Source: an uncultured virus (IMG/VR IMGVR_UViG_3300031851_000011) (taxonomy: Duplodnaviria > Heunggongvirae > Uroviricota > Caudoviricetes). Taken from it: a DNA stretch of 64,000 nt. Within the stretch, counting starts at the first letter, position 1; each line of letters starts with the position of its first letter. This document shows positions 6,835 to 58,532 of this stretch, piece after piece. The stretch lies in IMG/VR virus record IMGVR_UViG_3300031851_000011. One strand, 5' to 3'. The translations under genes were made by a program, and so were the position numbers. Under the pieces are notes generated by a model. It was not told where the DNA came from. It made no database searches and saw only the letters and a list, made by a program, of their open reading frames with translations.

Positions 6835-6862
6835 ATTATAGTGACGATTTAGATTAAGTCAA
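6835..6862 (-). promoter_or_regulatory. sigma70-type promoter of ruvB operon
   Basis: TTGACT-N16-TATAAT, 7 nt before GTG start. Confidence 0.75.
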
Positions 6863-7000: not shown

Positions 7001-7048
7001 AATTACACCCCTTATTTGCAACTTTTGCGTTTAAACTTGGGACTTTTT
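7001..7048. repeat. 48-bp direct repeat, copy 1
   Basis: AATTACACCCCTTATTTGCAACTTTTGCGTTTAAACTTGGGACTTTTT; 47/48 identical to 7752-7799. Confidence 0.95.
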
Positions 7049-7067
7049 AGCGAAAGCACGATGGATC

Positions 7068-28558: not shown

Positions 28559-28616
28559 TATATATCAATATAGATAAAAAATCTAATTTTAAGAATCAAC
28601 TTAAAGAAAGTATTGT

Positions 28617-28916
28617 TTAAACTTTAATTGTTGTCGGCGCGAAGCTTTCTAACTCTTCACACAAGGAAAGAATTTCAGACTTTTTCATATTAGGGGCTAA
28701 ACTTCTTAATTTAGAAAGCTCTTTTTGAAAGAAAATAAACTCTTGATCTTGATCTATAATTTCTTTTGTGTGGGAATTTAAAATACATTCCTCAAAAACC
28801 TCAAAATAAAGTGGGTCGATTTGTTGCTCGATAGGGCAAAAATTAGTATTGCGCAACACATAGCGCAAAATATCATCTCTGGTGATTTTATGCAGGTTAA
28901 AAAAATCGTGTATCAT
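28617..28916 (-). CDS. hypothetical protein
   Basis: 99 aa ORF. Confidence 0.65.
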   Translation of the reverse strand: MIHDFFNLHKITRDDILRYVLRNTNFCPIEQQIDPLYFEVFEECILNSHTKEIIDQDQEFIFFQKELSKLRSLAPNMKKSEILSLCEELESFAPTTIKV

Positions 28917-28948
28917 GTTAATGATAATAAAACAATTTTAAGCAAATG

Positions 28949-29617
28949 TCAAATACAAGATTCAACTAATATCGCTTCGGCTTCTCTACGCTTAAGTAAA
29001 CCATCTAAGCCTTTTCCTCGCCATATACGCTTCATGGCGCGTATTTCACGAGCGATAGACTTGTAGTCTTTCTGAGGGACAAGAGAGCGAATATTGCGCA
29101 TTTCAGAGCGTCTAGAACCTTTCATGGAAGCACCTCTATTGAACACAATAGAAACAAGCGCACCAAAAGCATCAGGATGAAGATCCTCGCATTGTGGGAA
29201 GGCTTTCAGCGTGTAATTTATAAATTTTGGGACAGTTGTTTCTTGGAAGACCTGAACAGCAGAATCCCAAGGTATCTTTATATCCGATATGCGTTTCGCG
29301 TGTGATTCGGCAACACTACCCCTGTAACCAACAACAGAAGTAATTCTTTTTAAATCTTTTTTAGAAAGGAAGTTCTTCCAGTCTTTTTTGACGGTTTCGG
29401 CTGAATTATAACCTAAATCATAACCGATGCCAATCGTCACACCGCTGGAAGCCTGTGGATAAGTTGGATGGTCTAAAAAACGATTATAATAACCTTTGTT
29501 GCCCACCTCGTATTGAAGAATTAGTTTTAGTGATTTTTCGGAAAGGGTATATATATCTTTTACCTCCTCTTTTTGTTTTTTAGAGAAAAGATTTTTAAAC
29601 CACGAAAATAAACTCAT
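28949..29617 (-). CDS. endolysin, GH24/pesticin-like lysozyme
   Basis: YEVG, SGVTIGIGYDLG, ALVSIVFNRG, GLLKRREAEA. Confidence 0.85.
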   Translation of the reverse strand: MSLFSWFKNLFSKKQKEEVKDIYTLSEKSLKLILQYEVGNKGYYNRFLDHPTYPQASSGVTIGIGYDLGYNSAETVKKDWKNFLSKKDLKRITSVVGYRGSVAESHAKRISDIKIPWDSAVQVFQETTVPKFINYTLKAFPQCEDLHPDAFGALVSIVFNRGASMKGSRRSEMRNIRSLVPQKDYKSIAREIRAMKRIWRGKGLDGLLKRREAEAILVESCI

Positions 29618-29931
29618 TTTTTTATAAACTTAGAAGGGTTTTTTTCAAATTTTTTAGCAAGAGCTATTAGACCCTGAATGATTTCTGGACTAACAACACC
29701 AATAACGCCATAACAGATAGCTTTTGTGAAATCAGAGAAAGGGGCGCCGTTCAGAATAAACCAAGCAATACCACTGGATATAGCCGCGCTGAAGATTTTT
29801 CTGAAGAGGGAAAGGAGAGAATGTTTGTTAGGGTCAATCATAATTCTGGCTAGCATACCAAAAGCTCCAACGACGGGGACAAGCCACCCACCCTCACAAA
29901 GAAATTCTCGCAATAAAAGTTTAAAGTCCAT
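29614..29931 (-). CDS. putative holin
   Basis: Three hydrophobic segments, basic C-terminus, overlaps endolysin start. Confidence 0.7.
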   Translation of the reverse strand: MDFKLLLREFLCEGGWLVPVVGAFGMLARIMIDPNKHSLLSLFRKIFSAAISSGIAWFILNGAPFSDFTKAICYGVIGVVSPEIIQGLIALAKKFEKNPSKFIKK

Positions 29932-29967
29932 TATGAACATTTTTACACTTATATTGTATCTATTATG

Positions 29968-30783
29968 TCATATTTTTTTCACATAATCTTCTACAGACCT
30001 CCATTCAATATCTCCAATAGCATCTATTAGTCTAGTATTGTCGGATTTTGTTTTATATTGATAGTGTTGTTTTAGCTTTTTAGGCATTTTAATTGTTTCA
30101 ATTGTAGCTCCATACTTATCGCAAAAAATATTTGCTACATCAAGAAAAGATATATTTGAACCTGTGCCAACATTGAAAACCCCACTAGCATCAGAATGCA
30201 GTAGCCTGTAATGAGCCTCACAAACATCTTCGACACAAACAAAATCTCTTTTCATCTTTTCGCTGTTTTTAAAAACTTTTATTTTGCCGTTTTTTTGAGC
30301 TTGCTGTGAAAATTTGTGGATTGGGCTAGCTTGATCACCTTTGTGTTCTTCGTGTTTCCCATAAACATTAAAATAACGTAGACCCTGATACGGGTGTGTT
30401 GAATTTAAAAGCCAGCAATCAAACATATACTTGCTGAATCCGTAAGGGTTAAGCGGAGAACAAAACTGGTCTTCTTGAAAGGTCTTACTGTTCCCGTAAA
30501 CACTAGCACTGCTAGAATACTGAAATTTTATGTTATTCGCAGAACAAAGATTGTATATAACCTTAGAGAATTCAAAGTTCTCTTTTATTATTTTAGCTAT
30601 ATTTGTTTCGGTGGTTGACGAGTTTGCCGCTAAGTGGATCACCGCATCAAAACCATTTAGGTTTGGGTTGAAACTGCGGCGTTGTTTTAAATCATAACCC
30701 TCTACATCAATACCGCGTTTTGCTAAAAATTTACATAAATTTTTACCAATAAAACCTTCGCTACCTGTTACCAAAACTCTCAT
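29968..30783 (-). CDS. hldD: ADP-L-glycero-D-manno-heptose 6-epimerase
   Basis: TGSEGFIG, SSTTE, YSSSASVYG, PLNPYGFSKYMFD, GLRYFNVYG..E.HKG.QAS, YQYKT. Confidence 0.88.
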   Translation of the reverse strand: MRVLVTGSEGFIGKNLCKFLAKRGIDVEGYDLKQRRSFNPNLNGFDAVIHLAANSSTTETNIAKIIKENFEFSKVIYNLCSANNIKFQYSSSASVYGNSKTFQEDQFCSPLNPYGFSKYMFDCWLLNSTHPYQGLRYFNVYGKHEEHKGDQASPIHKFSQQAQKNGKIKVFKNSEKMKRDFVCVEDVCEAHYRLLHSDASGVFNVGTGSNISFLDVANIFCDKYGATIETIKMPKKLKQHYQYKTKSDNTRLIDAIGDIEWRSVEDYVKKI

Positions 30784-32223: not shown

Positions 32224-34575
32224 TTATTTTAACTTTTTTGTTGATAGTTTTTTTAGATGAATTTCACCCTCCCCGCTGAGAGATTCTTTTGCTACAGATT
32301 GTTTGATTTTTTTGTCAAATGCATCGTTAAGAGATTGTAAAGCGTTGTTTTTGAAATCAACACCTTGAACAAAGTTTTTAATAAATTTAAAATCATATAT
32401 CAGCTTGATGTTATTCATTGAAAGAATGTCGCTCATGTTTTTTAATTTGCTCCACAGGACTCTACGCAAGTCGCGCTCTGTAAGTTCTTCAAGAAAAATA
32501 TTGCTTGAGAAGTATTTAGACAAGTGGACGCGAATTTTAGACTTGGGTGGAGACTGACCTCCAGCAAAACCCATGCTTTTTTCCTCCAGAGTGTCTCCTG
32601 TTATAAAAAATTTACAGTTTGAGAAATCTGCCACGTCACCAGAGTTCATGTATATTTTACCTTCTTTAAATATCTCCGTAAACAATGAATGCGTTGACTC
32701 GTTCATTTTATGGAAGTCATCAATAATAATTATGCAGTTTGGCTCAATCAAAACCTTTTCACAAAGTGATGTGTTGTTATGGATTTGTGGGACTATCTTG
32801 TAGTTAGCATAATGATCTGAGAAATGAACGCCATTATAAGATAACACGGTCGCGCCACTCATTTCCAGAGACTCTTGCAACAGTTTGGTAAACATTGTCT
32901 TACCACTATGTTTAAACCCATTAAGGCAGAAAATTGGAATACCTCCAGAAGAGTTTTCAAAACCCAAGTTTGATAGCTTAATTGACTTTTCTAGTTTTTT
33001 GATTTGCTTTCTATTGCCCACAAAATTAGATCGAGCGTGATCGAAAAAAGATTCTATAACATGCTTCTTGTTTAGCGGGTTTTCTTTCTTGTCGAAAAAC
33101 GATTTTAATTGTTTAAGTGTTACTTGAGCGGGTTCTTTTTGTTTATCAGCCACCCAATCAGAGAACTTGGACTCAAACTCTGCAAAAAGATCTTCTGTGC
33201 TGTCACCATCTTCTTGAATGATTTGGTTCTTAAGTGTTTTGATATCACCTTCCATACTCCAAAATTCAACCTTAGCCTGAGCGCCGCAATGGTCGATCAC
33301 ATCCACAGCTTTGTCTGGGTAACATTTATTAGGCATAAATCTTTCGCAGTATTCAATAACGTTGCCCAAAAAAGATTTTGAATATTCAACATTATGAAAT
33401 TCCTCATAAAACTCAACAAGAGATGGGAGAATTTTATTCATTTGAAACTTGGAAGGCTCTCTGATTGTAACACGCTCAAATCGACGATCCAAAGCACTAT
33501 CTTTCTTGATAGTCTGAGTATATTCATTAATTGTGGTAGCCCCAATGCAACTAATAGTTCCACGAGCTAATTCTGGCTTAAGGATATTGGAAGCTTCAAG
33601 AGAGTTTTCTTGAGTCCCTCCTGCACCAACAAGAGTATGTATTTCATCAATAAACAGAATGAGGTTGTCATACTTCTTCATTTCATTCACAAAGTTCTCT
33701 AGGCGTTCTTCAAACTGACCACGATACTGTGTGCCAGCAACCATACTAGAAAGACTCAAAGAATAAATAACCTTGTTAGAAAGTAGCTCTGGTGCTTTAC
33801 CGTTGACAATAGAAGATGCCAAACCCTCGACCACGCTAGTTTTTCCACATCCAGCAGGTCCGACCAAAATGGCATTAGGTTTCTTTTTCCTGCACAGGAT
33901 GGTAGCAAGTTCTTCTATCTTTCCGTCGAAATCAATAACAGCGTCAAAATCACCACTTACAGCCTTTATGTTTAAATTCTCAGCAAACTGGGACAAAACA
34001 TCATTGTCGTTAAACATGTCAAGAACTTCAAGCTGTTCGGGTTGTTCTTGGACTTCAGTATCCTCAAGAAACGGTTTTGGAGAAAATAATTCTGTATCTT
34101 CGTCTTTCAGATACGCTGTTGTCCTATAAATTAAATCTTCAGCAGTATCATTGTGCAAACCGCCTTCAAAAAAGAAACTTTTGATTGCAGAGGTGGAGAA
34201 ATTGTAATCTAAAAAACCAAGGAAGATAACCTCTGGGGCGACGTAATCTAGGTTGAAAACATTAAAAGAAATATCTTCACAGTGCGCCAAAAACTTTTTT
34301 AGTTTTGGGGTGAACTTAATCTCTTTATCGTAATCCTCGTATTGTTTTTTACGCTCAAGATTTAAAAACGAAGTCTTAGACAATTCCTCCATGAGATCAG
34401 AATCTCCGACAATCGTTGCACAACCAAGATTGAAATTAGAGAAAAATATAGCGGAAAATAGTTCTATGTCTACGCTTTTGAAAGAAAGTTTTTTGGCGGC
34501 TTCTTTGCTTTTGTTAAAAATGCCGAGTGTCTGTTGTAAGTAGTTTTTAAGTTCCATGTTTTTTAAGGTCTCCAA
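32224..34575 (-). CDS. ClpA/ClpC-like Hsp100 ATPase
   Basis: Clp_N-like repeats; AAA1 GPAGCGKT, GTQYRGQFEER, FIDEIH, LKPELARG, DSALDRRF, PDKAVD; degenerate AAA2. Confidence 0.9.
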   Translation of the reverse strand: METLKNMELKNYLQQTLGIFNKSKEAAKKLSFKSVDIELFSAIFFSNFNLGCATIVGDSDLMEELSKTSFLNLERKKQYEDYDKEIKFTPKLKKFLAHCEDISFNVFNLDYVAPEVIFLGFLDYNFSTSAIKSFFFEGGLHNDTAEDLIYRTTAYLKDEDTELFSPKPFLEDTEVQEQPEQLEVLDMFNDNDVLSQFAENLNIKAVSGDFDAVIDFDGKIEELATILCRKKKPNAILVGPAGCGKTSVVEGLASSIVNGKAPELLSNKVIYSLSLSSMVAGTQYRGQFEERLENFVNEMKKYDNLILFIDEIHTLVGAGGTQENSLEASNILKPELARGTISCIGATTINEYTQTIKKDSALDRRFERVTIREPSKFQMNKILPSLVEFYEEFHNVEYSKSFLGNVIEYCERFMPNKCYPDKAVDVIDHCGAQAKVEFWSMEGDIKTLKNQIIQEDGDSTEDLFAEFESKFSDWVADKQKEPAQVTLKQLKSFFDKKENPLNKKHVIESFFDHARSNFVGNRKQIKKLEKSIKLSNLGFENSSGGIPIFCLNGFKHSGKTMFTKLLQESLEMSGATVLSYNGVHFSDHYANYKIVPQIHNNTSLCEKVLIEPNCIIIIDDFHKMNESTHSLFTEIFKEGKIYMNSGDVADFSNCKFFITGDTLEEKSMGFAGGQSPPKSKIRVHLSKYFSSNIFLEELTERDLRRVLWSKLKNMSDILSMNNIKLIYDFKFIKNFVQGVDFKNNALQSLNDAFDKKIKQSVAKESLSGEGEIHLKKLSTKKLK

Positions 34576-37114
34576 GTTTCATGAGGACGGAAGAATTTAT
34601 TATTTTTATATTTTCAGCGAATGATGTATTACTATCACTTCTTCTTCCAAAAACAACAATTATATCCTCCTTCTTTAAGGGCTTGTCTTGATTGTCTTCT
34701 ATGAATTCTGTTAGGTTTTCAGAGTTGCGATTATCCATTAATAAGAATTTATGATCACTAGTATTGTCACTACCAAAAATCATCATATACTTATTACCAT
34801 TCCTTGAAGTTCTTGTAAAGCAATCTTTCACCTGACAAACACATTTAAAACTAGAACCCTGAGATAAACTATTAGATTCTTTTAGGTTTGTTAGCATACC
34901 ATACTCGTCACTAAAGCAATCTGTTAGACCGAAAGAGTAACTGTAACCAAGAAGCGAATTTTCATACCACCAATAAGTAAATTTGTGATGTTTTTTGTTT
35001 TCGTTATAAATGCTTCGATAGTTATCAAACTTCTTTTTGAAAGTCTCAAATCGACTTGGCTTCATAATCGGGCGATTATCATCGCCTAGGGTTTGCTTGT
35101 CAACGATGTCAGCAATCGAATCCAATACATCAAAATTATACTTATCTCCCAACTTATCTAGATTTCTTTTTTCCCTGTCTGTTAGAAGGTTAAATGATTG
35201 AGCCTCAAGAACTAGACGAATTCTATTGTCAGTATTACTGTCCATAGTTCCAGCTTGAATCAGAGCGGCGAGAACAGAAATGTTGATCCCACATTCTTTA
35301 GCCGCAACAAATGCGTGATACTTATTGTCAAAAGAATTGCCACGAAATGAAACAAGACTCCTCAAAGAACGCAGAGAAATGCCTTTAATACTATTCAAGC
35401 CGTATCGAATGTCGTCTCCCTCAATCTGGAAGTTTAAACCTGACTTAAAAAGATCTGGGGGTAGAAGTTTGATTCCAAAATCTGGCAATTCTTGATTAAC
35501 TGAAGAAATGGTTTGCAGAGGATCGGGTTCAAACTCTGCTGACTCCAACACGCTCAAGAAAAACTCTTTTGGGTGGTTGAACTTAAGATACACAGTCTTA
35601 GCCGCTAGGGTCGCATACGCAAAACTGTGAGATTTATTGAATGAATAGTGCGCGGCGGCTTCCAACGCTGACCAGAAGAAATCAGCAACTCTTTCTTCCA
35701 TACCCTTTTCTTGAGCGGCATTGTAAATTTTCTCTTTCCAAGGTTGCATTTTTTCAACCATTTTCTTACCAACAATCCTGCGAACATCATCAGCATCTTG
35801 TAGAGAAAAACCAAAAACTTGAGAAATACATTGCATCAAGGTTTCTTGATATAAAAATACATTTTTACTTTCACGAAGAAGTTCATCCATGACGGGGTCA
35901 ATACCCAACTCTTCGGGAGATCGTTTCTGCCTAATGTAATCGTCAACAAATTGAAGACTGGACGGGCGAGCAAGAGCTACAACGTCAGATAGTTCATTCA
36001 AGTCCATCGGTTTAACATTTTGGCAAACTTGAAAGTTGGTATCAGCAGAAATCTGGAAAAGACCCACTGGGTGATTGAAATCCTGCAAAACCCTGTAAAT
36101 ATTAAAGTCGTTAGGGTCAATATCTTCTAATTTTACACCAAGCTTCTGGCATGTTTTGTGAGCAATTGTTAGAGTTCTCAAGCCAAGTATATCAAACTTA
36201 ACCATAAGATCAGCAACGTCATGCATATTGTAGCCAGTAACCACATCGCCATCTTTCGTTAGCTGTAAAGGAACTACATCTTCAATATTCTGACTGCAAA
36301 TTGCAATACCAGATGGGTGAACACCTGTGTTTTTTATTAGGTTTTCTATAGCTATGGCATTTTCAATAGTTGTTCTGTGAGAAGAACACCACTCATCAAA
36401 TTTTTCGCTTTCTTCCCTAGCGTTCTTTAGGGATAAAACTTGACCGTGTAATTTAGGTATTAAGTCACTAACATTTTTAGCTTCGTCTTCTTTAGCTTCA
36501 TCGAAATATTTTGTCGCCTCGCGAATACAAAGCTTAGAACTGAAGGTATTAAAGGTTAGTATTTTAGCGGTGCGACCAGCGTGAGTTTTTTCAATATATT
36601 CGATTACCTTCCCTCGCTTCTCATAAGAAATATCATTATCGATATCTGGAAGAACACTACCAACAAGAAACTCTTTGCCGTTATTGTCTGTCACTTTACG
36701 CGCTCGACTCTTGGAAACAAATCGCTCAAAAAATAAACCATGTGGGATTGGATCAATGTCCGTTACACCCAAAAGAAACAAGACAAGAGAACCCGCCGCA
36801 CTTCCGCGACCTCCACCGACAGGGATGTCGTTATCATGACAGAAGTTAATCACATCCCAATTCAATAAAATATAATCAATGAACCCAAGCGTATTGAGGG
36901 TGTTTAATTCAAACTTAACGCGATCAATATAGTTTTTCTCTTTTTCTAGACCCTTTGCGACCATACCCTGATAACAAAGCTTACGAACAATTTCGTAATT
37001 CGAACTGCCTTTTTTAAGATCCAATTCTTCAAGAACGGATTCATCTACGGGAGTCTGAGGAAGTTCAACACCCGCTGGTTCTACGCAATCATAAACAGTG
37101 AAGTCTTTAAACAT
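34547..37114 (-). CDS. dnaE: DNA polymerase III alpha catalytic subunit lacking most of PHP domain
   Basis: GRGSAAGSL, FERF, PDIDND, GVHPSG, KFDILGL, YSFNKSH, IRYGLNSIKG. Confidence 0.95.
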   Translation of the reverse strand: MFKDFTVYDCVEPAGVELPQTPVDESVLEELDLKKGSSNYEIVRKLCYQGMVAKGLEKEKNYIDRVKFELNTLNTLGFIDYILLNWDVINFCHDNDIPVGGGRGSAAGSLVLFLLGVTDIDPIPHGLFFERFVSKSRARKVTDNNGKEFLVGSVLPDIDNDISYEKRGKVIEYIEKTHAGRTAKILTFNTFSSKLCIREATKYFDEAKEDEAKNVSDLIPKLHGQVLSLKNAREESEKFDEWCSSHRTTIENAIAIENLIKNTGVHPSGIAICSQNIEDVVPLQLTKDGDVVTGYNMHDVADLMVKFDILGLRTLTIAHKTCQKLGVKLEDIDPNDFNIYRVLQDFNHPVGLFQISADTNFQVCQNVKPMDLNELSDVVALARPSSLQFVDDYIRQKRSPEELGIDPVMDELLRESKNVFLYQETLMQCISQVFGFSLQDADDVRRIVGKKMVEKMQPWKEKIYNAAQEKGMEERVADFFWSALEAAAHYSFNKSHSFAYATLAAKTVYLKFNHPKEFFLSVLESAEFEPDPLQTISSVNQELPDFGIKLLPPDLFKSGLNFQIEGDDIRYGLNSIKGISLRSLRSLVSFRGNSFDNKYHAFVAAKECGINISVLAALIQAGTMDSNTDNRIRLVLEAQSFNLLTDREKRNLDKLGDKYNFDVLDSIADIVDKQTLGDDNRPIMKPSRFETFKKKFDNYRSIYNENKKHHKFTYWWYENSLLGYSYSFGLTDCFSDEYGMLTNLKESNSLSQGSSFKCVCQVKDCFTRTSRNGNKYMMIFGSDNTSDHKFLLMDNRNSENLTEFIEDNQDKPLKKEDIIVVFGRRSDSNTSFAENIKIINSSVLMKLGDLKKHGT

Positions 37115-37181: not shown

Positions 37182-37799
37182 CTATAGTTCTAATGCTTTC
37201 TTCAATTTTAAAAACACCTCGAAGCACATCTTTGTGTCGTAGAGAGAATTATGCAACAACTTTTCATTAAAGTCAATGCCAAACAGCTTCAATAACTGCA
37301 ACTGACTAACGCTCTTCCCCCTTGCTCCGCGCTGGTGCATTAGCTTATATTGCCACGCTAAGAAGTCTGAGCTTGGTTTCCGAATATCTTCTCGGTATGC
37401 CCTGCCCAAAGCGCGTGTGTCGTAAATACGATCCAAGTAGCTATAGTCTGGAGTCTCCCCCAACATGTTTTGCATAATCGCGACCATATAAACATCAAAA
37501 CCCAGCAGGTTTTGACCAACCACTATGTATTCGGGGTTTAAAAGATATTTCTTCAATGCTCCCCATACATCAGCCAAAGGTTGTTTCTCCCTGTTGTATT
37601 TTGCGTCACTAAAGCCAGTCATCTTTTTGATCATCGGAGAAAGATTCAAGTCGTCATAATCAACATAAAGATCATGTTCAGAGATTATTTTTTTACCTTG
37701 AGCCTCCACCCATGAAATCTGCCAAGGTCGAGAATAACAAAGATTCAAGCCTTCTGTTTCTGTGTCAAAGACAATATATTTTTGGTCGTATTTAAGCAT
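37182..37799 (-). CDS. DEDDh 3'-5' exonuclease (epsilon-like)
   Basis: VFDTETEGL, GQNLLGFD, HNSLYD. Confidence 0.9.
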   Translation of the reverse strand: MLKYDQKYIVFDTETEGLNLCYSRPWQISWVEAQGKKIISEHDLYVDYDDLNLSPMIKKMTGFSDAKYNREKQPLADVWGALKKYLLNPEYIVVGQNLLGFDVYMVAIMQNMLGETPDYSYLDRIYDTRALGRAYREDIRKPSSDFLAWQYKLMHQRGARGKSVSQLQLLKLFGIDFNEKLLHNSLYDTKMCFEVFLKLKKALEL

Positions 37800-38496
37800 T
37801 GGATTGTTCTTTCCAGCTTTGCCAACAAAATTCTTGAGAGCAAAAATGGTTTAGGTTAGGGTTGCTAAAGGTTGGGCTTTTGCCTTGAGAGCGGGAACAG
37901 ACGGCGCGAAGCATTTGAAACGCTTTGAAGTCTTCTCTGTTTTCGTAGCAAATGGTTTTGACTAAAGTTTTATTGTTGATTTTTAATTTTTCAAGTGTGC
38001 GATTAATTTGAAAATCAAACGGATGGTTGTTATCCTCAACCATATAAAAATGATCAACTCCATCCAAGTCGATATTGCTCATACCAAAATGAAAAACATT
38101 GTTGTAGACGAAGGAATCGTAAAATGGGACACCGACTCTAATGTTCTGTAGTTTGTCTTTTGTTTCAGAGAAAGCCAAGACACTGGATTCGCTTGTATAG
38201 GTGTTTGTGTAAAGATTTTTTATGTCTCGCAAACCTTGGTTATTTTTAGCAAACATAACCAGCTTGCTGAAACGCTCGTTTTCATCAAAAGAGTCAGAAA
38301 TAACAGGCAATCGGATGCCGAAAACAAGTTTGATTTCTTGTTCAAGGCATTTTTGATTCAGTTCTCGAAAACCATAAAAGTTGTCCTCAACAACACAAAT
38401 CTGATCAAGATTAGCTTCTTTAACTAATTCAAGAATATGGTCGATGGTTAATATCGATTTGCCGACGCTGAACTGGGTTTTAAACAAAGGTAACAT
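37792..38496 (-). CDS. stand-alone PHP domain of DNA polymerase III alpha
   Basis: KTQFSVGKSIL, EDNFYGF, KLVFG, FAKNNQGLRDI; metal-ligand His residues lost. Confidence 0.8.
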   Translation of the reverse strand: MLPLFKTQFSVGKSILTIDHILELVKEANLDQICVVEDNFYGFRELNQKCLEQEIKLVFGIRLPVISDSFDENERFSKLVMFAKNNQGLRDIKNLYTNTYTSESSVLAFSETKDKLQNIRVGVPFYDSFVYNNVFHFGMSNIDLDGVDHFYMVEDNNHPFDFQINRTLEKLKINNKTLVKTICYENREDFKAFQMLRAVCSRSQGKSPTFSNPNLNHFCSQEFCWQSWKEQSNA

Positions 38497-44685: not shown

Positions 44686-44955
44686 TTATCTCAAAAGTAT
44701 GCCAACAACTCCTGATGCCGCGACAGCAGATCCAATAGCCGTTGTTTTATTAGAAAAGGCTTCGCCCTGTGCCTTGGTTGCAGTTGAATGATCAACAGAT
44801 ATTGCTGTCCATGTTATTGATCCATCAGCGCCTTGTATATACTGAACTTGATCCATATCTGCATTAAATTTAGCAATCAGCTTTCCATCTTGATAAAATT
44901 TAGTGCTTGCACAAGAAACCAAGAAAAACAAAGGAAAAATTAGTATTGTTTTCAT
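44686..44955 (-). CDS. putative lipoprotein
   Basis: MKTILIFPLFFLVSC lipobox; hydrophobic C-terminus. Confidence 0.65.
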   Translation of the reverse strand: MKTILIFPLFFLVSCASTKFYQDGKLIAKFNADMDQVQYIQGADGSITWTAISVDHSTATKAQGEAFSNKTTAIGSAVAASGVVGILLR

Positions 44956-45992
44956 GATAAGTCTTTATTAAGCATTTTTTTGACAAGACCATAAAAGTCT
45001 GTTTTTCTAACCCATTTAAGCTCTTCTTCTGCTCTTGTGGGATCACCTAGCAATAATGAAACTTCTGCTGGTCGATAGTATTTTGGATTGATCGTTACAA
45101 GCACCTTATCTCCGTGAATGTATTTTTGATCCAGACCTTGACCCTCCCAACGACACTCTTCAGCACCGAAACCAGAAAAGCCAAAAGCCGCTTCAACAAA
45201 ATCCCTAATAGAATATGTCTCACCAGAGGCTAGAACGTATTCACTTAAATCTTCATAAGAGTTTGCTTGTTGATTTAACATCTTCCAAATGCCGTCAACG
45301 AAATCTTCAGCGTCCGACCAGTCTCGTTTTGCATCTAGATTACCAAGTTGCAATGGCGTGATTTCTTTGCCTTCCCTGATCTCTTTTATAATGTTAGCCA
45401 CGCCCTTGGTTACTTTGCGAGTAAGAAACTCCTCGCCCCTCCTTGTTCCCTCGTGATTGAATAACCATCCTTGGATGGCGTATAAATTGTAACTTTCACG
45501 CCACACCTTTACCAGATGCCTTGCGGAAGCCTTAGAAGCTCCGTATGGGCTTCTTGGTCGCAGAGGGTGAGTCTCGTCTTGCGGAGAGAATTCAACGTCT
45601 CCAAACTCCTCGGACGAGCCAGCATTATAATACCTGCACTCTGGACAGTGCTTGCGAATAGCCTCAAGCTGATACAGGACTGCCATGCAGTTTGTATTCA
45701 TGTGGTTTTCTGGCATGTCCCAGCTAACACCAACAAAAGAGTTTGCCGCAAAGTTGATAAAGTAGTCGGGTTTTTCATCCGAGATAACACGATCAACATT
45801 GGATTGATCTGTAATGTCTAGATCAATCAGTTTGAAGCGGTTGTTATTAACCAAGTGTTTTATATTCTCATGGTTTTTAACTGAGAGTCGGCGGACACCA
45901 GCGATAATATCGATGTCCGTATTTGCTAACAAATAGTCAACCATATGGCTTCCATCTTGACCTGTTACCCCTGTGATTATTACTTTTTTCAT
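44952..45992 (-). CDS. gmd: GDP-mannose 4,6-dehydratase
   Basis: ITGVTGQDGS, SSEEFG, PRSPYGASK, LFNHE, GNLDAKRDW, YRPAEV. Confidence 0.93.
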   Translation of the reverse strand: MKKVIITGVTGQDGSHMVDYLLANTDIDIIAGVRRLSVKNHENIKHLVNNNRFKLIDLDITDQSNVDRVISDEKPDYFINFAANSFVGVSWDMPENHMNTNCMAVLYQLEAIRKHCPECRYYNAGSSEEFGDVEFSPQDETHPLRPRSPYGASKASARHLVKVWRESYNLYAIQGWLFNHEGTRRGEEFLTRKVTKGVANIIKEIREGKEITPLQLGNLDAKRDWSDAEDFVDGIWKMLNQQANSYEDLSEYVLASGETYSIRDFVEAAFGFSGFGAEECRWEGQGLDQKYIHGDKVLVTINPKYYRPAEVSLLLGDPTRAEEELKWVRKTDFYGLVKKMLNKDLS

Positions 45993-50793: not shown

Positions 50794-51399
50794 ATGGACT
50801 TAACTAAATCAACAGATCAAGAGTTAGCCGCACAAGTGAGAGAAACCGCTTGTGATGAAGATGCGTTAAAAGAATTAATCTTTAGGCATTCTGGTATTTT
50901 TATGGATATGCTAAAAGCATATGGCGGTAAAAGTTTTAACCAAAACCAATTGAATGACTTTATAGACCAGAAAGACTCTGTTATATATGAAGCCGCCCAG
51001 AAGTACGATCCAGAAAGGTCGAAGTTTTCTACCTTCTTGGCTAACACGACTAAATACTTATGTTTGTCGGAGAAAACTAAATTCCAAAAACACAGTATAA
51101 TGACAAGTCTGGAAGAGACGGAATTTTGTCAGAGTGATAACTCTCCCACTCCAGACGAAGATTGTTTGCAAAACGAATCCATGGAGAAAATTAAAGACAT
51201 GATAACTAATTATCATGACAAGCGTGTGCAACAAATATTCAAGATGCGATACTTTGAAACTAACAATAACAAGCTTACGCCATGGAAGAAAATAGCCAAA
51301 ACCTTAGATCTTTCAGCGCAAAGCTGTATAAACATTCACGACAAAACACTTAAAATTTTCCAAAACCGAGTAAAAAATGAACAAACAATTGAATTTTGA
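50794..51399 (+). CDS. phage RNA polymerase sigma factor (sigma70 family)
   Basis: Region 2 AAQKYDPERSKFSTF; region 4 IFKMRY..TPWKKIAKTLDLS HTH. Confidence 0.85.
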   Translation: MDLTKSTDQELAAQVRETACDEDALKELIFRHSGIFMDMLKAYGGKSFNQNQLNDFIDQKDSVIYEAAQKYDPERSKFSTFLANTTKYLCLSEKTKFQKHSIMTSLEETEFCQSDNSPTPDEDCLQNESMEKIKDMITNYHDKRVQQIFKMRYFETNNNKLTPWKKIAKTLDLSAQSCINIHDKTLKIFQNRVKNEQTIEF

Positions 51400-52465
51400 T
51401 GCGCCCCTAAACTCCCTTAGCTTGGGCAATGTGAGCTTTAACTTTATGCGAGAGCTTCACAGAAAAGGCGTAGACGTAAACCTTTTCCCTGTTGGGGATA
51501 AAGCAGAGCTAGCCGCCTATGATAAAAAATCTGATAAACTTGTTGAGTATATCAAGAAATCAGGTCAATCCAGATACTCTAACTTAAACCCTAACACGCC
51601 GACACTTCGAGTTTGGCACATTAATGGCAGTGAACGCTGGATAGGAAAGGAACAATACCTATACACGTTTTACGAACTTGATAGCCCAACCGAGGCTGAG
51701 ATCAATATTGTTAAAGCCCAGAAGCATGTTTTCTTTTCTTCTTCTGACGCTTGCGATTCTTTTAAATCTGCTGGGTGTGATAACGTATCTCACGTCCCAC
51801 TAGGATTCGACCCTGATTTTTGTAAAACCGATAAGGAGTATATGGACGATGTTACTCATTTTGGTTTGGTCGGCAAATTTGAACGGCGCAAAAATACATC
51901 TCTAATCATCCAGTCTTGGTTGAAGCGTTTTGGAAACAATCCAAAATACCAACTTACTTGTTTGGTTAATAATCCATTTTTTGCAAAAGAGACTATGGAT
52001 GAGATGTTGCAGTATAGCTTAATGAATCAAAGTTGGAGTAATATAAACTTCCTACCACATCTTACTACCAACTCAGAGGTTAACGAACTCACCAACTCAA
52101 TTGACATTGATTTATCAGGTCTTTCAAATGGCGAGGGTTGGAATCTGCCAGCGTTTAATGCGACGGCTCTCGGCAAGTGGAGTATAGTTTCAAACTGTTC
52201 GTCTCACAAAGATTGGGCGAAAAAAGATAATTGTATTCTTGTTGAGCCAGAACACAAACAGCCATGCTACGACAACATATTTTTCCACGAAGGTCTTCTT
52301 TTTAACCAAGGCAGTTATTATAAAATCTCCGAAGAAAAAATCTTTTCAGCTTTTGAAACGGCTGTCGTTATGGCGAAACAACCGAACAAAGAAGGCGAAA
52401 AACTGAAAAGCGAGTTCACCTACGAGAAGAGTATCGATAAAATTTTAAGTGTAATCTTTCAATAG
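51377..52465 (+). CDS. GT4-like (GT-B) glycosyltransferase
   Basis: VPLGFD, GKFERRKN, GEGWNLPAFNATALG. Confidence 0.85.
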   Translation: MNKQLNFDAPLNSLSLGNVSFNFMRELHRKGVDVNLFPVGDKAELAAYDKKSDKLVEYIKKSGQSRYSNLNPNTPTLRVWHINGSERWIGKEQYLYTFYELDSPTEAEINIVKAQKHVFFSSSDACDSFKSAGCDNVSHVPLGFDPDFCKTDKEYMDDVTHFGLVGKFERRKNTSLIIQSWLKRFGNNPKYQLTCLVNNPFFAKETMDEMLQYSLMNQSWSNINFLPHLTTNSEVNELTNSIDIDLSGLSNGEGWNLPAFNATALGKWSIVSNCSSHKDWAKKDNCILVEPEHKQPCYDNIFFHEGLLFNQGSYYKISEEKIFSAFETAVVMAKQPNKEGEKLKSEFTYEKSIDKILSVIFQ

Positions 52466-53836: not shown

Positions 53837-54406
53837 ATGAAATATCGTATTTATAAACCAAACCCTAAAAACACTGGTTGCGCCGCAACTGTTGATATTG
53901 CTAAAATCGGAGACGACTCTGTCAGCAACCTTTTTATCTCAATGATCCAGCAAAAAGGCTGGGATAATGCTAAGAAAACAGGGTCTTTTAGTGGAGGTAA
54001 AGATATTAATTTCAAATTAAGTGTGGCGGAAGCTGGCGAAATGGTCTCTTCGATCAAATCACGCATTCCGTTTGTCGCTTTTCACAAATTCAAGGACGAC
54101 TCAACAATCATCCGATTTGTTCCTTGGGAGCAGAATCGCAATGTCAAAGAAAAAAACGGAGACGTAAATTATAAAACTCCAGCATGGTCTTTGAGTGTTA
54201 AGCGGAACGGTAGTGATGTATTCAGGTTGCCAATTAGTTCTGGTGAATCTCAAGTCCTCAATGTCCTTCTAAAGAAATTTATTGCCGACTCTCTAATTGA
54301 TACTAGTGAACAAGATGTAAGGGAGAGGGCTAAAAAAGCATCAGCACCCGCTAAGAGAACAAATACAAATGCACCAGAAGAGGATAACAACGATCCTCCT
54401 TTCTAA
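53837..54406 (+). CDS. putative single-stranded DNA-binding protein
   Basis: beta-rich core, acidic tail EEDNNDPPF. Confidence 0.45.
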   Translation: MKYRIYKPNPKNTGCAATVDIAKIGDDSVSNLFISMIQQKGWDNAKKTGSFSGGKDINFKLSVAEAGEMVSSIKSRIPFVAFHKFKDDSTIIRFVPWEQNRNVKEKNGDVNYKTPAWSLSVKRNGSDVFRLPISSGESQVLNVLLKKFIADSLIDTSEQDVRERAKKASAPAKRTNTNAPEEDNNDPPF

Positions 54407-56148
54407 TGTCTAAAAAAATCAAAGTATTAGTTCATTCAAATTACTCTCGTCTTGTCACGGGGTTTGGGAAGAATATGAAAAACATTCTTCTCGCTCTCCA
54501 TGACAGCGATGAGTTTGAGGTTATTGAGGCGGCTAATGGGGTTGGGTTTGGTAATGACCTTATGACTCCTTGGAAGAGTTATGGAACTCACCCCACGGCA
54601 GATGTCTTACAAAAAATAAAAGGAGACCCAGCCAAAGAACGCGCCGCTTCTTATGGCTACTACATGATTGACAAAATTGTTGAAGAAGAAAATCCCGATA
54701 TCTATCTTGGTATTGAAGATATATGGGCTTTCTCTCAATTTGAAAAAAAGAAATGGTGGAAAGATGTTAAAACCATTCTGTGGACAACTTTAGATAGTTT
54801 ACCTATACTTGATCAAGCATATCACATGCACGGCGTATGTGACAAGATGTTGGTGTGGGCTACGTTTGCTCAAAAAGCAATGGAGGAGAATGGCTACGAA
54901 GGTGTGGAAACTATTCACGGGGCTATAGATTACAAAGATTATTATCCCCTTCCTGCTATCGAGCGAAACGCACTAAGAGAAAAACACAATCTAAGTGAAG
55001 ACTACGTCATTGGTTTTGTATTCAAAAATCAACTTAGAAAATCTGTCCCAAACATCCTTGAAGGATTTAGGCTTTTTCAAGAAAGTCACCCCGAATTAAA
55101 AACGAAACTTTTACTACACACCGATTGGGCAGAAAAAGATGCTGGTTGGGATATTGAAAAATACATCGTCGAAAAAAAGATCAACCCTAAAGATGTCTTA
55201 GCTACCTACCTGTGCCACAAATGCGGTCAGTTTTTTCTAGCTCCGTATTCTGGTGAAGATAAAAATTGCGGTGTTTGCGGTTCAACGAAAAGCGTCAAAA
55301 CAAAAAACAGTGGCAAGGGAGTAAATGAGAACCAACTCAACCAAATCTACAACATTATGGATGTTTATTGCCATCCATTTACCAGCGGCGGTCAAGAGCT
55401 TCCCATTCAAGAAGCTAAATCGGCTGGCTTAATCACTCTTGCCACATCTTATTCTTGTGGTCTTGATTCATGTTCTCAAGAAGATGGCGGAATGCCATTA
55501 GATTGGGATGAATATCGTGAACCTCATACGAACTTCATTAAAGCGACAACAAGACCTTCTAGTATATCTTCCAATTTACATAAAGTTTTCAGAATGGATG
55601 ATGAAATGAAAAAACACTTTTTGAAAAACGGCAGAAAATGTCTGGATGACCGCTTTTCCGTTGATGTTACAGTAGAGAAGTTAAAGACAACATTCAGGGA
55701 GGTTTACAAAGCTGAAAAAATTAAAGTCGAACAAGAGCAAGATAATAGCCTTGCCCCACCAGAATTGTCCGACATGTTAGATGGAGAAATTGATGACCGC
55801 ATTTTGTTTGTTATGCCAGAATCTGCTGGCGATGTATTCATAGCAACATCACTATTACCTTCTCTGAAAAAAACATATCCCAACAAAGACATTTACTTCG
55901 CTACCCAAGAACAGTTCCAACCGATACTCAAAGGCAATCCATACATATACAAAGTTTTAAATTTCCATACTGCCATGGAAAACTTACCGATGATGGAAGG
56001 CGCGAGTAACCACAAAGGATACTTCCACTTATGTTTCTTGCCTCACATCGGAACTCAACGGATGTTGGATTATCTGCACCAAGGAGATGCCGATAAAATA
56101 ATGTTCGATATTCACTCTGAAAATTATAATAAGCAATGCACCTCTTAG
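54406..56148 (+). CDS. GT4-like glycosyltransferase with CxxC-CxxC insert, fused to GT9 N-terminal domain
   Basis: TGFG, KNQLRK, GGQELPIQEA; CHKC..CGVC; ILFVMPESAGDVFIATSLLPSLKKTYP..ILKGNPYIYKV. Confidence 0.8.
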   Translation: MSKKIKVLVHSNYSRLVTGFGKNMKNILLALHDSDEFEVIEAANGVGFGNDLMTPWKSYGTHPTADVLQKIKGDPAKERAASYGYYMIDKIVEEENPDIYLGIEDIWAFSQFEKKKWWKDVKTILWTTLDSLPILDQAYHMHGVCDKMLVWATFAQKAMEENGYEGVETIHGAIDYKDYYPLPAIERNALREKHNLSEDYVIGFVFKNQLRKSVPNILEGFRLFQESHPELKTKLLLHTDWAEKDAGWDIEKYIVEKKINPKDVLATYLCHKCGQFFLAPYSGEDKNCGVCGSTKSVKTKNSGKGVNENQLNQIYNIMDVYCHPFTSGGQELPIQEAKSAGLITLATSYSCGLDSCSQEDGGMPLDWDEYREPHTNFIKATTRPSSISSNLHKVFRMDDEMKKHFLKNGRKCLDDRFSVDVTVEKLKTTFREVYKAEKIKVEQEQDNSLAPPELSDMLDGEIDDRILFVMPESAGDVFIATSLLPSLKKTYPNKDIYFATQEQFQPILKGNPYIYKVLNFHTAMENLPMMEGASNHKGYFHLCFLPHIGTQRMLDYLHQGDADKIMFDIHSENYNKQCTS

Positions 56149-57266
56149 AACGATATAGTTTATCTACGGGTTTAAAAATTGAAAACCCTGAAATTAACGC
56201 ACAATTCTACCCCGTGGTATCAGATAAGTATGTCGTGTTTCATACTTCTGCAAAGGATAATTTGCGCGACTATGATTATTGGAACGAGGTGAAATTGATG
56301 CTTCAACCGCTGTTTAAAAAACACGGAATAACAACAGTTCAAATAGGGCTAGAAAAAGATCCAACAATTAATTGTGATATTGATTTACGTGGTCAAACAA
56401 CCATAAACCAAATGGCTTATGTTATCAGGCGCTGTGATTACTTTATAGGTGTTGATTCTTTTCCCGCCCATCTTGCTGGTCACTACAACAAAAAGATGTT
56501 ATCTGTTTATGCAAACTCTTACGTTGCTTGTGTGCGACCATATTGGGGTAACCCCGAAAATCAAAAGCTAATTGAAACTCACCGCCCGAATGGTGAGAAG
56601 CCATCTTTCTCATTTGAAGAAAACCCAAAGACAATCAACCGACTTAAGCCAGACGAGATATCCAAAGAATTTTGCGACCTTGTTGATCCTGAATTTAAAG
56701 CACAAATCCCTTCGGTTTCTTACATAGGACCTAAATACACTATAGAGCAATTCGAGATCGTTCCAGATTTTCCATATCAAATCAAACACCCTAATTTATT
56801 TATACGCATGGACATGCTTCACAATGAAGACAACCTCGCTCAATCGCTAGAGGCTAGCCCTGCATCGATAATTACAAATAAACCCATTGATAAAGAATTA
56901 CTTAATAGTTCGAGAATTAAATTAATTAACTACGTTGCAGATGAATTTGACGAGAATTTTGTTAATAATATTCGCGAGAGAGGTATCGATATGCACCTCA
57001 TTTGCACAAATAAAATTAATTTAAAACAACAGCGAGTTAAGTTCTTTGATTACAAAGTGATACCTTATGATGAAGAATCTAAATTAAGCGAGTCAAAAGA
57101 AAAGATAAGCGAAGAGGTTATCAAAAATAGTCGTATTGCCAGTAGAAAAAAAGTATTTAAAAACAATCAACAATACAATAGCCACTATGAATCGAACTCT
57201 TTTGAAAATATTGATGATATTTTTCTTGACTTAGATTGGATTATGTTATATAATATTTGCAAATGA
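56136..57266 (+). CDS. GT9 heptosyltransferase C-terminal domain plus unknown domain
   Basis: MHLLERY, YVVFH, VQIG, DLRGQTTINQMAYVI, FIGVDSFPAHLA. Confidence 0.8.
   Translation: MHLLERYSLSTGLKIENPEINAQFYPVVSDKYVVFHTSAKDNLRDYDYWNEVKLMLQPLFKKHGITTVQIGLEKDPTINCDIDLRGQTTINQMAYVIRRCDYFIGVDSFPAHLAGHYNKKMLSVYANSYVACVRPYWGNPENQKLIETHRPNGEKPSFSFEENPKTINRLKPDEISKEFCDLVDPEFKAQIPSVSYIGPKYTIEQFEIVPDFPYQIKHPNLFIRMDMLHNEDNLAQSLEASPASIITNKPIDKELLNSSRIKLINYVADEFDENFVNNIRERGIDMHLICTNKINLKQQRVKFFDYKVIPYDEESKLSESKEKISEEVIKNSRIASRKKVFKNNQQYNSHYESNSFENIDDIFLDLDWIMLYNICK
57226..57254 (+). promoter_or_regulatory. sigma70-type promoter
   Basis: TTGACT-N17-TATAAT, 8 nt before ATG 57263. Confidence 0.8.
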
Positions 57267-57604
57267 AAAACGAACTAAAACTAGACGGTAAAATCAAACT
57301 AATTGGAGAAACTGTTACATTTGACAGCGGCTTCTCTAAGCGCGAATTTGTCATCACTACAAATGACGACAAGTATCCTCAAGATGTTAAATTTGAACTT
57401 ATTAAAGACAATTGCGGCAAGCTTGATGATTTGAATGACGGTCAGTCAGTTGAGGTATTCTTCAATGTGCGAGGCAATGAGTATAATGGCAATCATTATG
57501 TCAGTCTGTCAGCTTGGAGGATTGATAGCCTAAAAGCATCAAGCAACGCTGGATCTCAGCCAGAGTCATCAAATGATGATGTAGACGACGACATTCCATT
57601 CTAA
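57263..57604 (+). CDS. DUF3127 OB-fold ssDNA-binding-like protein
   Basis: FSKREFVI..KYPQ..FE, FNVRGNEYNG..SLSAWRI, DDDIPF tail. Confidence 0.85.
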   Translation: MKNELKLDGKIKLIGETVTFDSGFSKREFVITTNDDKYPQDVKFELIKDNCGKLDDLNDGQSVEVFFNVRGNEYNGNHYVSLSAWRIDSLKASSNAGSQPESSNDDVDDDIPF

Positions 57605-57640
57605 AAATAATTTTCGGGTAGGAATCCGAGTCGCGACTCA

Positions 57641-57671
57641 AAAGGGGGTGCTATAAGCATCCCCTTTTTTT
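57641..57671 (+). terminator. intrinsic terminator
   Basis: AAAGGGGGTGCT..AGCATCCCCTTTTTTT. Confidence 0.8.
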
Positions 57672-57725: not shown

Positions 57726-58532
57726 ATGCCAGCAAAAAAGAAAGCTCCAAAAAGTAAATCAGAAGCAAAACAAAAAAACCCATATTCCCGCGACCAACTA
57801 GGTTTGCTGGAAAATATAGAATACAAGCATAATGTAGATGGTTCTATTGATTGGAGATCAATGATCCCCAATGAGTTTCTTTACGTTCGCTCTGAGTGGT
57901 TTACTAGAAAGGGTTTGGATGTTCCTAAATCGCCCGAAGGCTTGCAGGATAATCAACTTGCCATTATGCTTGGAGGCATTAAATACCTAGCAAAAATACG
58001 CGGGTTTTCTAAGGTTTTGTTTGACGTATCTCATGTTCGCAAAGACTACATTTCATGTAAATGCACCATTCACTGGAATCATAACTTTGAAAGCATCGGC
58101 TCATCTGAATTTCCTCAAAAAGAAGATGTTGTTTATCAAGAATATGCTAATGCTACATCTGAAAATACAAATAGCTTTTGTTTAAAGTTCTTGGAAACCA
58201 TTGCTTGTAACCGCGCCTTTGTTCGTTGTGTGCGTAATTTCTTAAATATTCATATTGTTGGAGTTGACGAACTTGACAATTCCAGCGGTGTTCCTCAATT
58301 CGAGACGCTAGATAATGAAGATCCAAATGCATCACTATCGCCTCAGTCACAGCTTGACCAAACGGTTGCAGATAAATTTGCAGTAGACTTCGACGAATTC
58401 AAATCTACAAAACTTCGAGAGTTTTGGGAGAATAATTCTTATCGAAATAATAATACGGCAGATTGGAAATCATTCTCTGATATACCAGCAAAAGACGCCA
58501 GACAAATTCTCAACCTGATAAAAAAGTCTTAA
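57726..58532 (+). CDS. hypothetical, possible Rad52/Sak-like annealase
   Basis: LGGIKYLA, ANAT..LETIACNRAFVRCVR helix motif; next to SSB-like gene. Confidence 0.4.
   Translation: MPAKKKAPKSKSEAKQKNPYSRDQLGLLENIEYKHNVDGSIDWRSMIPNEFLYVRSEWFTRKGLDVPKSPEGLQDNQLAIMLGGIKYLAKIRGFSKVLFDVSHVRKDYISCKCTIHWNHNFESIGSSEFPQKEDVVYQEYANATSENTNSFCLKFLETIACNRAFVRCVRNFLNIHIVGVDELDNSSGVPQFETLDNEDPNASLSPQSQLDQTVADKFAVDFDEFKSTKLREFWENNSYRNNNTADWKSFSDIPAKDARQILNLIKKS

Follow-up and report, generated by a model that had tools for sequence, protein, structure and literature searches.

A probable two-chain GT9 glycosyltransferase, one half fused to a GT4 enzyme, in a clade of uncultured tailed phages

Two adjacent phage genes carry the two parts of a GT9 fold

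We analysed a 64,000-nucleotide (nt) stretch (the window) of an uncultured tailed phage (IMG/VR record IMGVR_UViG_3300031851_000011), in which two overlapping plus-strand open reading frames (ORFs) very probably encode one glycosyltransferase (GT) of family GT9 as two chains. ORF1 (54406-56148; 580 amino acids (aa)) combines a GT4-type enzyme of GT-B fold, a four-cysteine finger, a linker and the GT9 acceptor lobe. ORF2 (56136-57266; 376 aa; predicted local distance difference test score (pLDDT) 96.4) comprises the last acceptor-lobe helix, a linker, the donor lobe and a C-terminal domain, here called X. On balance, we read the pair as two chains of a single phage glycosylation enzyme with two active sites, which may build a virion glycan. 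A first-pass annotation had described a GT9 heptosyltransferase split at its inter-domain linker. All positions and motifs that it gave were right, and the 13-nt overlap (56136-56148, plus strand) with ORF2's own ATG is present.

The acceptor lobe occupies ORF1 residues 465-580 (55798-56148). It begins at 55798 with RILFVMPESAGD, followed by LKKTYP at residue 487 and GNPYIYKV at 510, as annotated, and D476, the equivalent of the catalytic base, is encoded at 55831-55833. Residues 465-530 match TIGR02195 (heptosyltransferase II) over its positions 1-66 (E 8.8e-5), and TIGR02193 and TIGR02201 over positions 1-57. Profile-profile alignment with hhalign against Escherichia coli WaaC/F/Q/U gave 95.8% probability (E 8e-9) and placed D476 on WaaC D13. 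Single-sequence and profile searches of PDB sequences returned weak GT9 matches only (3TOV, E 0.12-0.64).

The GT9 donor part is encoded by ORF2 residues 1-185 (56136-56690), in which the motifs HLLERY (2-7), DLRGQTT (83) and GVDSFPAHLA (105) were found. Residues 18-154 match PF01075 positions 92-238 (E 3.5e-10; 40.1 bits against a cut-off of 22). The model of residues 1-183 aligns with WaaC 138-320 (Z 16.2, root-mean-square deviation 2.8, 150 residues aligned), WaaF 129-348 and 3TOV 134-344 (Z 15.4-16.2 for the three). The top fold matches are GT9-type (Z 13.8-16.2), MurG appearing only at a Foldseek E of 2e-3. R44, D107 and H112 correspond to WaaC K192, D261 and H266, and F109 replaces G263. 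Scanned singly, the halves scored 18-34 bits against the equivalog cut-offs of 135-185 for TIGR02193, TIGR02195 and TIGR02201.

ORF2 does start at HLLERY, and the proposal that this start lies in the linker itself needs revision. HLLERY is the counterpart of the WaaC motif HAVER, whose H is residue 139, and the ORF2 model shows a helix at 3-11, a 20-residue loop and a strand at 32-36 before the donor lobe. We take the WaaC lobe boundary to lie at about residue 152, with the HAVER helix the last of the acceptor lobe. ORF2 would thus complete ORF1's lobe with that helix, and the break probably lies one helix ahead of the GT-B linker. When ORF1 is folded alone, residues 551-580 are unstructured (pLDDT 42-52). 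The tail TQ..YxHNG is conserved, with T550, Q551 and H558 kept in 69-71 of 74 paired loci (the window and 73 others); a stretch that takes up its structure on a partner chain would look like this.

The split is conserved among viral loci

We confirmed 552 viral loci, and locus counts below refer to the best 80. GT4 and acceptor lobe share one ORF in all 80, and the donor part is a separate ORF in 79 and fused in none; the remaining contig ends inside ORF1. The best 120 of 3112 ORF1 relatives measure 552-588 aa and 77 ORF2 relatives 241-407 aa. After removal of duplicates and one truncated locus, 76 distinct junctions had gaps of -14 (3), -13 (2), -8 (2), -4 (34), -1 (17), 0 (4), +1 (7), +2 (3) and +5 nt (1). 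The other three of the 76 carried insertions of 359, 453 and 922 nt (one locus each), which encode a cupin, a 98-aa ORF and another GT4. The junctions use all three frames; together with the insertions this excludes an error, recent decay or a common frameshift signal. The HL motif directly follows the ATG in 117 of 119 full-length representatives. Contigs (not reads) from four runs of four studies, one of which may be the source, bridge the window's junction gap-free and without an indel. Among 20 matches in prokaryotic bins (see below), a separate donor gene was found in 18; one stops at the contig edge, and in the other (L119) the GT4 ORF ends without an acceptor lobe 167 nt before the contig edge.

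The split is thus real, as the first-pass annotation had suggested. The readings as sequencing error or pseudogene are refuted by the conserved split, varied junctions and clean contigs. A single-chain relative exists (P0337, below) and ORF2 follows the stop directly in frame in 4 of the 76 distinct loci, and even so it is extremely improbable, given the three frames, the three inserted genes and the ATG placed before HL, that the break reflects an error, a recent pseudogenising mutation or a programmed frameshift or readthrough to one chain.

The two halves evolve and recombine together

Pairwise identities across the 74 paired loci were compared between domains. The acceptor lobe follows the donor lobe of the next gene (Spearman 0.86; partial 0.81 given GT4), and its partial correlation with its own fused GT4 is 0.045 given the donor lobe. 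Acceptor lobes that share at least 75% identity (168 pairs) always go with donor lobes of at least 67% identity. Where the GT4 domains share at least 75% identity (218 pairs), the acceptor lobes drop below 55% in 19 pairs, and in 17 of these 19 the donor lobes fall below 40%. Loci L005 and L014, for example, have GT4 domains 98% identical and GT9 parts only 51% and 39% identical, and in L009 the GT4 comes from one group and the GT9 from another. This co-variation across the gene boundary indicates that recombination moves the GT9 as a cassette spanning two genes. Separation of the GT9 halves by recombination was not seen in the 74 paired loci.

We also searched with a profile of domain X, which yielded 825 representatives (50% identity clusters). 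The best 150 comprised 118 complete donor-lobe-X proteins, 31 partial ones and one fused form, P0337, in which GT4, acceptor lobe, donor lobe and X follow in order on one chain of 997 aa. P0337 is most likely a re-fusion, because it is a singleton, is nested on a long branch, has lost the junction tail and helix, and carries E and Y at the positions of D476 and H112. A search for longer ORF2 forms (714-2035 aa) found none among 4603 candidates; this search is insensitive, since P0337 exists.

Structure prediction of the two full chains as a complex scored 0.55 (runs 0.55, 0.61 and 0.53), with 0.00 for the best of three controls; the runs agree in at least 34% of contacts and partner pLDDT is at least 85. 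Of 157 solved complexes, 116 pass the mark used, as do 2 of 215 mismatches; 18 of the 157 and both mismatches pass it with scores of 0.60 or below. The prediction that had been proposed as a check on the heterocomplex thus lends it weak support.

Several points weaken the case for a two-chain enzyme. Linkage of neighbouring DNA alone favours co-transfer, and the pairs compared are not independent of each other. P0337 is known as a single protein from a single 4.3-kb contig, its nested position comes from a midpoint-rooted tree, its altered residues include the base, and its locus was not found in metagenome contigs (37 pattern matches, none confirmed). A complex score of this kind is more often wrong than right unless the complex is likely beforehand, and may come from likeness to solved GT9s. 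Taken together, the obligate heterocomplex proposed in the first-pass annotation draws on co-variation, joint recombination, the fused relative and complementary folds, and to a small degree on the complex prediction. Sequential glycosylation, as suggested there, would have the GT4 act first and the GT9 second, and is conjectural.

In the mechanism that we propose, the first helix and linker of ORF2 would dock into the C-terminal lobe of ORF1, rebuilding an inverting GT-B cleft in which D476 (ORF1) would act as base and R44 and D107 (ORF2) would hold the nucleotide sugar. Docking of ORF2 would also tether the GT4, to which domain X may make another contact in a crossed arrangement. The GT9 part would be a swappable cassette, with a sugar specificity that may change or be lost between lineages.

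Catalytic residues and donor sugar of the GT9

In WaaC, the substitutions D13A, D261A and K192A are given as lowering activity 4688-, 2027- and 926-fold (PMC5713226). Across the paired loci, D476 (D13) is kept in 73 of 74, D107 (D261) in 69 and K or R at 44 (K192) in 68; in a wider set of 123, K/R44 is found in 98 and D107 in 97. D107 was placed by hhalign and R44 by motif register beside the aligned stretch. In 47 of the 74 pairs, the window's included, D476, K/R44, D107 and H112 occur together. On the other side, no glycine is found at the position of WaaC G263, H112 is retained in no more than 50 of 74 pairs, and G475, the glycine before D476, in 38 of 74. At the position of WaaC K7 the phage family has a hydrophobic or small residue.

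The window encodes, on the minus strand, an HldC-like heptose-1-phosphate nucleotidyltransferase (26890-27396; TIGR02199 E 7.3e-42), an HldA-like heptose-7-phosphate kinase (27384-28169; TIGR02198 E 5e-39) and an HldD-like ADP-heptose 6-epimerase (29968-30783; TIGR02197 E 3.3e-69), each of these models being the best match and each score lying under its equivalog cut-off. With a HAD phosphatase and a cupin they make up a partial ADP-heptose pathway at 26573-30783. Gene absence was counted in 15 related records, two of them complete; the window phage itself is known from the window. The HldA-like gene was found in 4 of the 15 and the HldD-like gene in 9. Viral heptose-biosynthesis enzymes have already been reported (PMC11461863).

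The HldD-like gene accompanies the G-D motif (G475-D476): among the 15 records it is present in 9 of the 10 that have the motif and in 0 of the 5 others. Another 32 fragments, 16-43% complete, gave 7 of 16 and 0 of 16. All 16 HldD-positive records and the window thus have the motif, and HldD is found in 0 of 21 records without it. This association fits heptose as donor of the G-D form. It is tempered by the fact that the HldD-positive records all belong to one clade, with perhaps three independent losses, and that fragments make up most of the records; none of the 15 related records yielded GmhA (SIS_2). From gene content, we consider ADP-heptose made by the HldA/C/D-like enzymes a somewhat better than even candidate for the GT9 donor in the window phage. 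A heptose donor is not family-wide: HldA- and HldD-like genes are missing from the two complete relatives, in which the G-D motif has also lost its glycine. The designation as heptosyltransferase in the first-pass annotation is therefore plausible for the window phage, with its catalytic residues and HldA/C/D-like genes, and does not extend to the family.

The GT4 may use a different donor. A GDP-mannose 4,6-dehydratase-like gene (GMD; 44952-45992, minus strand; its best match, under the equivalog cut-off) is a candidate source of a GDP-sugar and is present in all 15 related records, and the conserved GMD pathway could supply the GT4.

The GT4 enzyme and its four-cysteine finger

ORF1 residues 1-435 (54406-55710) model as a GT4-type GT-B domain pair (pLDDT 87.8), with 3OY2 (Z 32.3) and BshA (Z 32.0) as fold matches over 342-370 aligned residues. 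PF00534 matched under its cut-off and phrog_2170 with E 4.6e-18. A TGFG loop and an NQLRK motif, presumably phosphate-binding, are present with their motif residues conserved in 74 of 74 pairs, and N208, R211, K212 and E336 are invariant in the same set. In place of the E-x7-E motif, whose role, like those of TGFG and NQLRK, we assume from other GT4 enzymes, ORF1 has a G-x7-E form (GGQELPIQE, 328-336). G328 replaces the first Glu in 74 of 74, the second Glu, E336, is kept, and Q330-E331 are invariant, which hints at an unusual GT4 donor.

The CHKC-x14-CGVC insertion noted previously lies in the GT4 C-lobe at C270-C291 (55213-55278) and forms a beta-hairpin in the model. None of its four cysteines varies, either in the 74 pairs or in 121 aligned sequences. 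The first-pass annotation had called it a zinc finger, and zinc or iron are both candidates. In TibC, a four-Cys finger in a GT-B lobe binds iron and serves assembly (PMC4358343), so that zinc and DNA binding are each only one possibility for the phage finger.

Between GT4 and acceptor lobe lies a variable linker of about 30 aa (55711-55797; pLDDT below 50 at 444-450), the region of the recombination breakpoints. It extends to about 90 aa in a clade of 630-aa proteins (L047-L048, L051-L083 and L085), in which a 60-aa helical insert with the pattern Y/H..IL...D..G..HW...L looks like a small separate domain. Two further loci have irregular copies: L109 shows an apparent internal duplication in the acceptor lobe (6555-7070), and in L116 (4995-5358) a stop interrupts the GT4 and the next gene downstream is broken, for which long-read errors are probable. 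A second GT4 gene of the window (51377-52465, plus strand), of the same PHROG family as ORF1's GT4 and present in 47 loci, has a sigma-like gene on one side and a small zinc-ribbon regulator on the other; N takes the place of E at the end of its donor motif.

The acceptor is probably not DNA

The other glycosylation genes of the genome encode GT2, GT32, GT90, two GT4, GMD and a sulfotransferase. By analogy, our tentative first choice of acceptor is a glycan on virion structural proteins that the pair might build with the GT2, GT32, GT90 and GT4 enzymes; we rank it over a host lipopolysaccharide (LPS), DNA and a GT9 that serves docking only, in that order. Three considerations favour it: the argument against DNA given below, the likeness of the GT, GMD and sulfotransferase set to that of chloroviruses, and known glycosylated phage virions (as cited in PMC12619734). 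It has to be squared with the position of the pair, which sits between probable single-stranded DNA (ssDNA)-binding and annealing genes and not among structural genes, and with B736L, the nearest GT4 structure, which is presented without an established activity in PMC9614988.

It is unlikely that the pair instead acts at the cytoplasmic face on a glycolipid of the host envelope, such as the LPS core, for superinfection exclusion or receptor change. The nearest solved relatives are indeed LPS core heptosyltransferases, the fold relatives of the GT4 include WaaG and WaaB, beside which cellular WaaC/F/Q work, and the window has ADP-heptose genes. Set against this, the halves score far under the equivalog cut-offs, the WaaC K7 residue is not kept, no membrane anchor is evident in the ORF1 or ORF2 model, and the pair belongs to the core of all related loci and is not an accessory element.

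A DNA acceptor was first suggested by the flanking genes. The same two-chain enzyme would then act on phage DNA or a nucleotide precursor, with the finger and the replication and recombination operon serving DNA binding. Of the 80 loci, 78 flank the pair with a Whirly-like gene and 77 with a Sak/Rad52-like one. The one match to ORF1 in cultured phages, a weak one to the GT4 part only in cyanophage S-EIVl (22.5%), lies two genes away from a primase. T4 AGT is among the GT4 fold matches, though low (Z 19.9, rank 37). A phage GT-B enzyme with HAD, kinase and cytidylyltransferase is described as putting heptose on 5-hydroxymethylcytosine (5hmC) (10.1101/2023.12.21.572611).

The genomes themselves argue the other way. 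In the window, CCGG occurs 0 times against 62 expected, GGCC 0 against 83 and GTAC 12 against 110; in the complete relative G001, CCGG occurs 0 times against 238 and GTAC once against 174. Of six-base palindromes, 22 of 54 (G001) and 18 of 51 fall below 0.2 of expectation in the two complete relatives, and in 32 of 59 loci of at least 15 kb one or more four-base palindromes are missing altogether. In glucosylated T4 (50 kb) nothing of this kind is seen (0 of 16 and 0 of 40; six-base mean 0.97), whereas unmodified T7 does show avoidance (six-base mean 0.60). DNA modification and restriction-site avoidance are described as alternatives in PMC12602166. Since the depleted GTAC contains each of the four bases, it seems that none is fully shielded. 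The avoided palindromes differ among relatives and, as traces of the hosts' restriction systems, could be of use in predicting the host.

The gene content points in the same direction. A thymidylate-synthase-family hydroxymethylase (PF00303) was found in 0 of 15 records (control positive in 10 of 14), a C5 methyltransferase (PF00145) in 1 of 15 and TET/JBP (PF12851) in 0 of 15, the control being silent too. A Pfam scan of G001 (129 of 147 ORFs, 90-900 aa, E at most 1e-4) revealed no base-modification gene and no heptose gene. Site avoidance and the missing hydroxymethylase leave a protein- or lipid-linked glycan. Genome-wide DNA glycosylation is thus disfavoured, sparse or site-specific DNA modification may occur, and we regard DNA as the acceptor as quite improbable.

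A further alternative questions the GT9 rather than its acceptor. The GT9 might be drifting to a pseudo-enzyme docking module, leaving the GT4 as sole essential catalyst and ORF2, through X, as its adaptor or targeting subunit. PnsB1, which has a GT9 fold and plays a structural part in the plastid NDH complex, is among the fold matches (Z 13.8; E 0.0017). The GT4 motifs and R224 and D226 of X are invariant and the GT9 donor residues vary, 27 of 74 pairs lacking at least one of D476, K/R44, D107 and H112, and D476 is lost in P0337. Even so, the four residues are retained together in most pairs and in the window, D476 is nearly universal, the G-D form accompanies HldD-like genes, and whole GT9 cassettes are swapped as if specificity mattered. 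We therefore rate this alternative, too, as improbable and keep a catalytic two-chain GT9.

Relation to known glycosyltransferases

The phage GT9 shares the GT-B fold and element order with WaaC, WaaF and WaaQ (PF01075; PDB 2H1F, 1PSW, 3TOV), and the window copy has equivalents of D13, K192, D261 and H266. It differs in being viral and divided over two genes, with its acceptor lobe behind a GT4 and an extra domain X, in the replaced G263, the unkept K7 and scores far under the equivalog cut-offs. Division of a GT-B enzyme over two genes, with occasional re-fusion, is documented for Alg14/Alg13 and EpsE/EpsF (PMC8993221). Those are MurG-related (GT1/GT28-like) enzymes of lipid-linked sugars, whereas the phage pair is GT9, breaks one helix before the linker and has each half fused to another domain.

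The protein-modifying heptosyltransferases TibC and AAH (PDB 4RAP, 4RB4; PMC4358343) have a GT9-like fold (Z 13.9) and a four-Cys finger in the GT-B C-lobe. TibC is a single-chain dodecamer with an N-terminal beta-barrel and 11-14% identity, and its finger lies within the heptosyltransferase itself, unlike that of the phage, which lies in the GT4. Neither phage model has a beta-barrel, and ORF2 lacks a four-Cys motif. The best fold match of the GT4 (Z 32.3), the chlorovirus GT4 B736L/A546L (3OY2), is 13% identical. Chloroviruses are described as using multi-GT proteins (A111/114R, A064R) and GMD/GMER for capsid glycans (PMC9614988), and the phage set of GT2, GT32, GT90, two GT4, GMD and sulfotransferase resembles theirs; they are eukaryotic viruses with no split GT9 and no metal finger.

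T4 AGT and BGT and the GT53 enzymes of Pyle et al. are also phage GT-B enzymes. Phage DNA GTs need 5hmC, from a hydroxymethylase or from a C5 methyltransferase plus TET. For the phage pair, no hydroxymethylase was found in the 15 related records, and the genomes avoid restriction sites. In Pyle et al., subclass III of GT53 takes heptose from a kinase/HAD/cytidylyltransferase route, contig 53 holds a heptose-on-5hmC pathway, and the string 'GT9' is part of the enzyme name GT94 (10.1101/2023.12.21.572611).

Split GT-B enzymes with re-fusions, viral GT9 genes and multi-GT viral proteins are thus already known; GT9 genes occur in other viruses too. Our literature searches turned up neither a split GT9 nor the gene pair of this clade, though the supplementary tables of Pyle et al. 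could list such genes. We likewise found no account of a GT9 divided in two, with one half joined to a finger-bearing GT4 and the other to domain X. If the halves reassemble, they would form a natural two-chain GT9 with mixable lobes, a tool to examine how the GT-B open-close motion, and acceptor and donor specificity, are shared out between lobes. An abundant clade of uncultured phages from marine and fresh waters has the pair among its core genes (825 clusters at 50% identity for X alone). Identifying its product would explain the retention of GMD and, in some lineages, of ADP-heptose genes. The restriction-site comparison removes DNA protection as the default annotation and points to virion or host glycans. 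At its most ambitious, the pair might be a crossed machine of two chains (GT4 plus GT9 N-lobe, GT9 C-lobe plus X) with two interfaces, one between the GT9 lobes and one between X and the finger-bearing GT4, making a heptose-containing virion glycan diversified by cassette exchange and by gain and loss of ADP-heptose genes. We consider this full version rather unlikely; if true, it would mean a heptosylated phage particle and a natural split GT9.

Domain X

The first-pass annotation had noted an ORF2 tail of about 180 aa without family; the tail is present and is closer to 190 aa. Domain X (residues 190-376; 56703-57266, plus strand) is an alpha/beta domain with G198, R224, D226 and Y372 invariant. 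R224 and D226 are kept in 74 of 74 pairs and in 122 and 121 of 123 in the wider set. Searches of Pfam, PHROGs, NCBIfam and PDB sequences gave no match to X, and its best Atlas matches (0.84) are unnamed viral clusters. A fold search with whole ORF2 was filled by the GT9 lobe, the sole row for X being a designed protein (Z 9.2). In its co-variation X follows the GT4 (partial 0.71 given the donor lobe, 74 loci; 0.54 given both flanking genes, 71 loci).

Genome setting and neighbouring genes

The window is part of a large tailed phage with RecA-, DnaB-, DnaE-, RNR- and ClpA-like and structural-looking genes. Its complete relatives (G001, G002) are 147-148 kb, IMG/VR contigs of 114 and 58 kb carry identical copies of ORF1 and ORF2, and the sequencing runs containing the stretch are marine; RNA runs contained small parts of it only. 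No cultured phage encodes a relative of ORF2 or of the downstream annealing-like gene, and matches of the window's DnaE in cultured phages are at most 33% identical. The 20 matches in prokaryotic genomes are all in metagenome-assembled bins of unrelated taxa. In 19 of them the locus adjoins the same Whirly-like or annealing-like phage genes, and we therefore read these as binned phage contigs. Nine of the 20 are Bacteroidota, a weak host hint only.

The upstream Whirly-like gene (53837-54406, plus strand) is a lead only, with PF08536 at E 0.014, under the cut-off. Whirly proteins are best known from plant organelles. The phage protein has an acidic tail of the type of single-stranded DNA-binding proteins (SSBs) with a PF end and is possibly the clade's ssDNA-binding protein. 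Downstream, the Sak/Rad52-like probable annealing gene (57726-58532, plus strand; Atlas 0.90 and 0.88) is likewise a lead only; profile searches with both flanking proteins gave no solved relative.

Between ORF2 and the annealing-like gene, the window phage and its near-identical copies alone have a second SSB of DUF3127 type (57263-57604, plus strand). Nearby are a sigma-70 site matching 11 of 12 positions (57226-57254) and a strong hairpin (57640-57668). A promoter scan found 14 sites against 15.1 expected, and no Shine-Dalgarno motif precedes the starts at 51377, 52467, 53837, 54406, 56136 and 57726. The window's DnaE-type polymerase is encoded in pieces on the minus strand, as PHP (37792-38496), exonuclease (37182-37799) and an 855-aa alpha subunit (34547-37114), and this order is the same in many loci.

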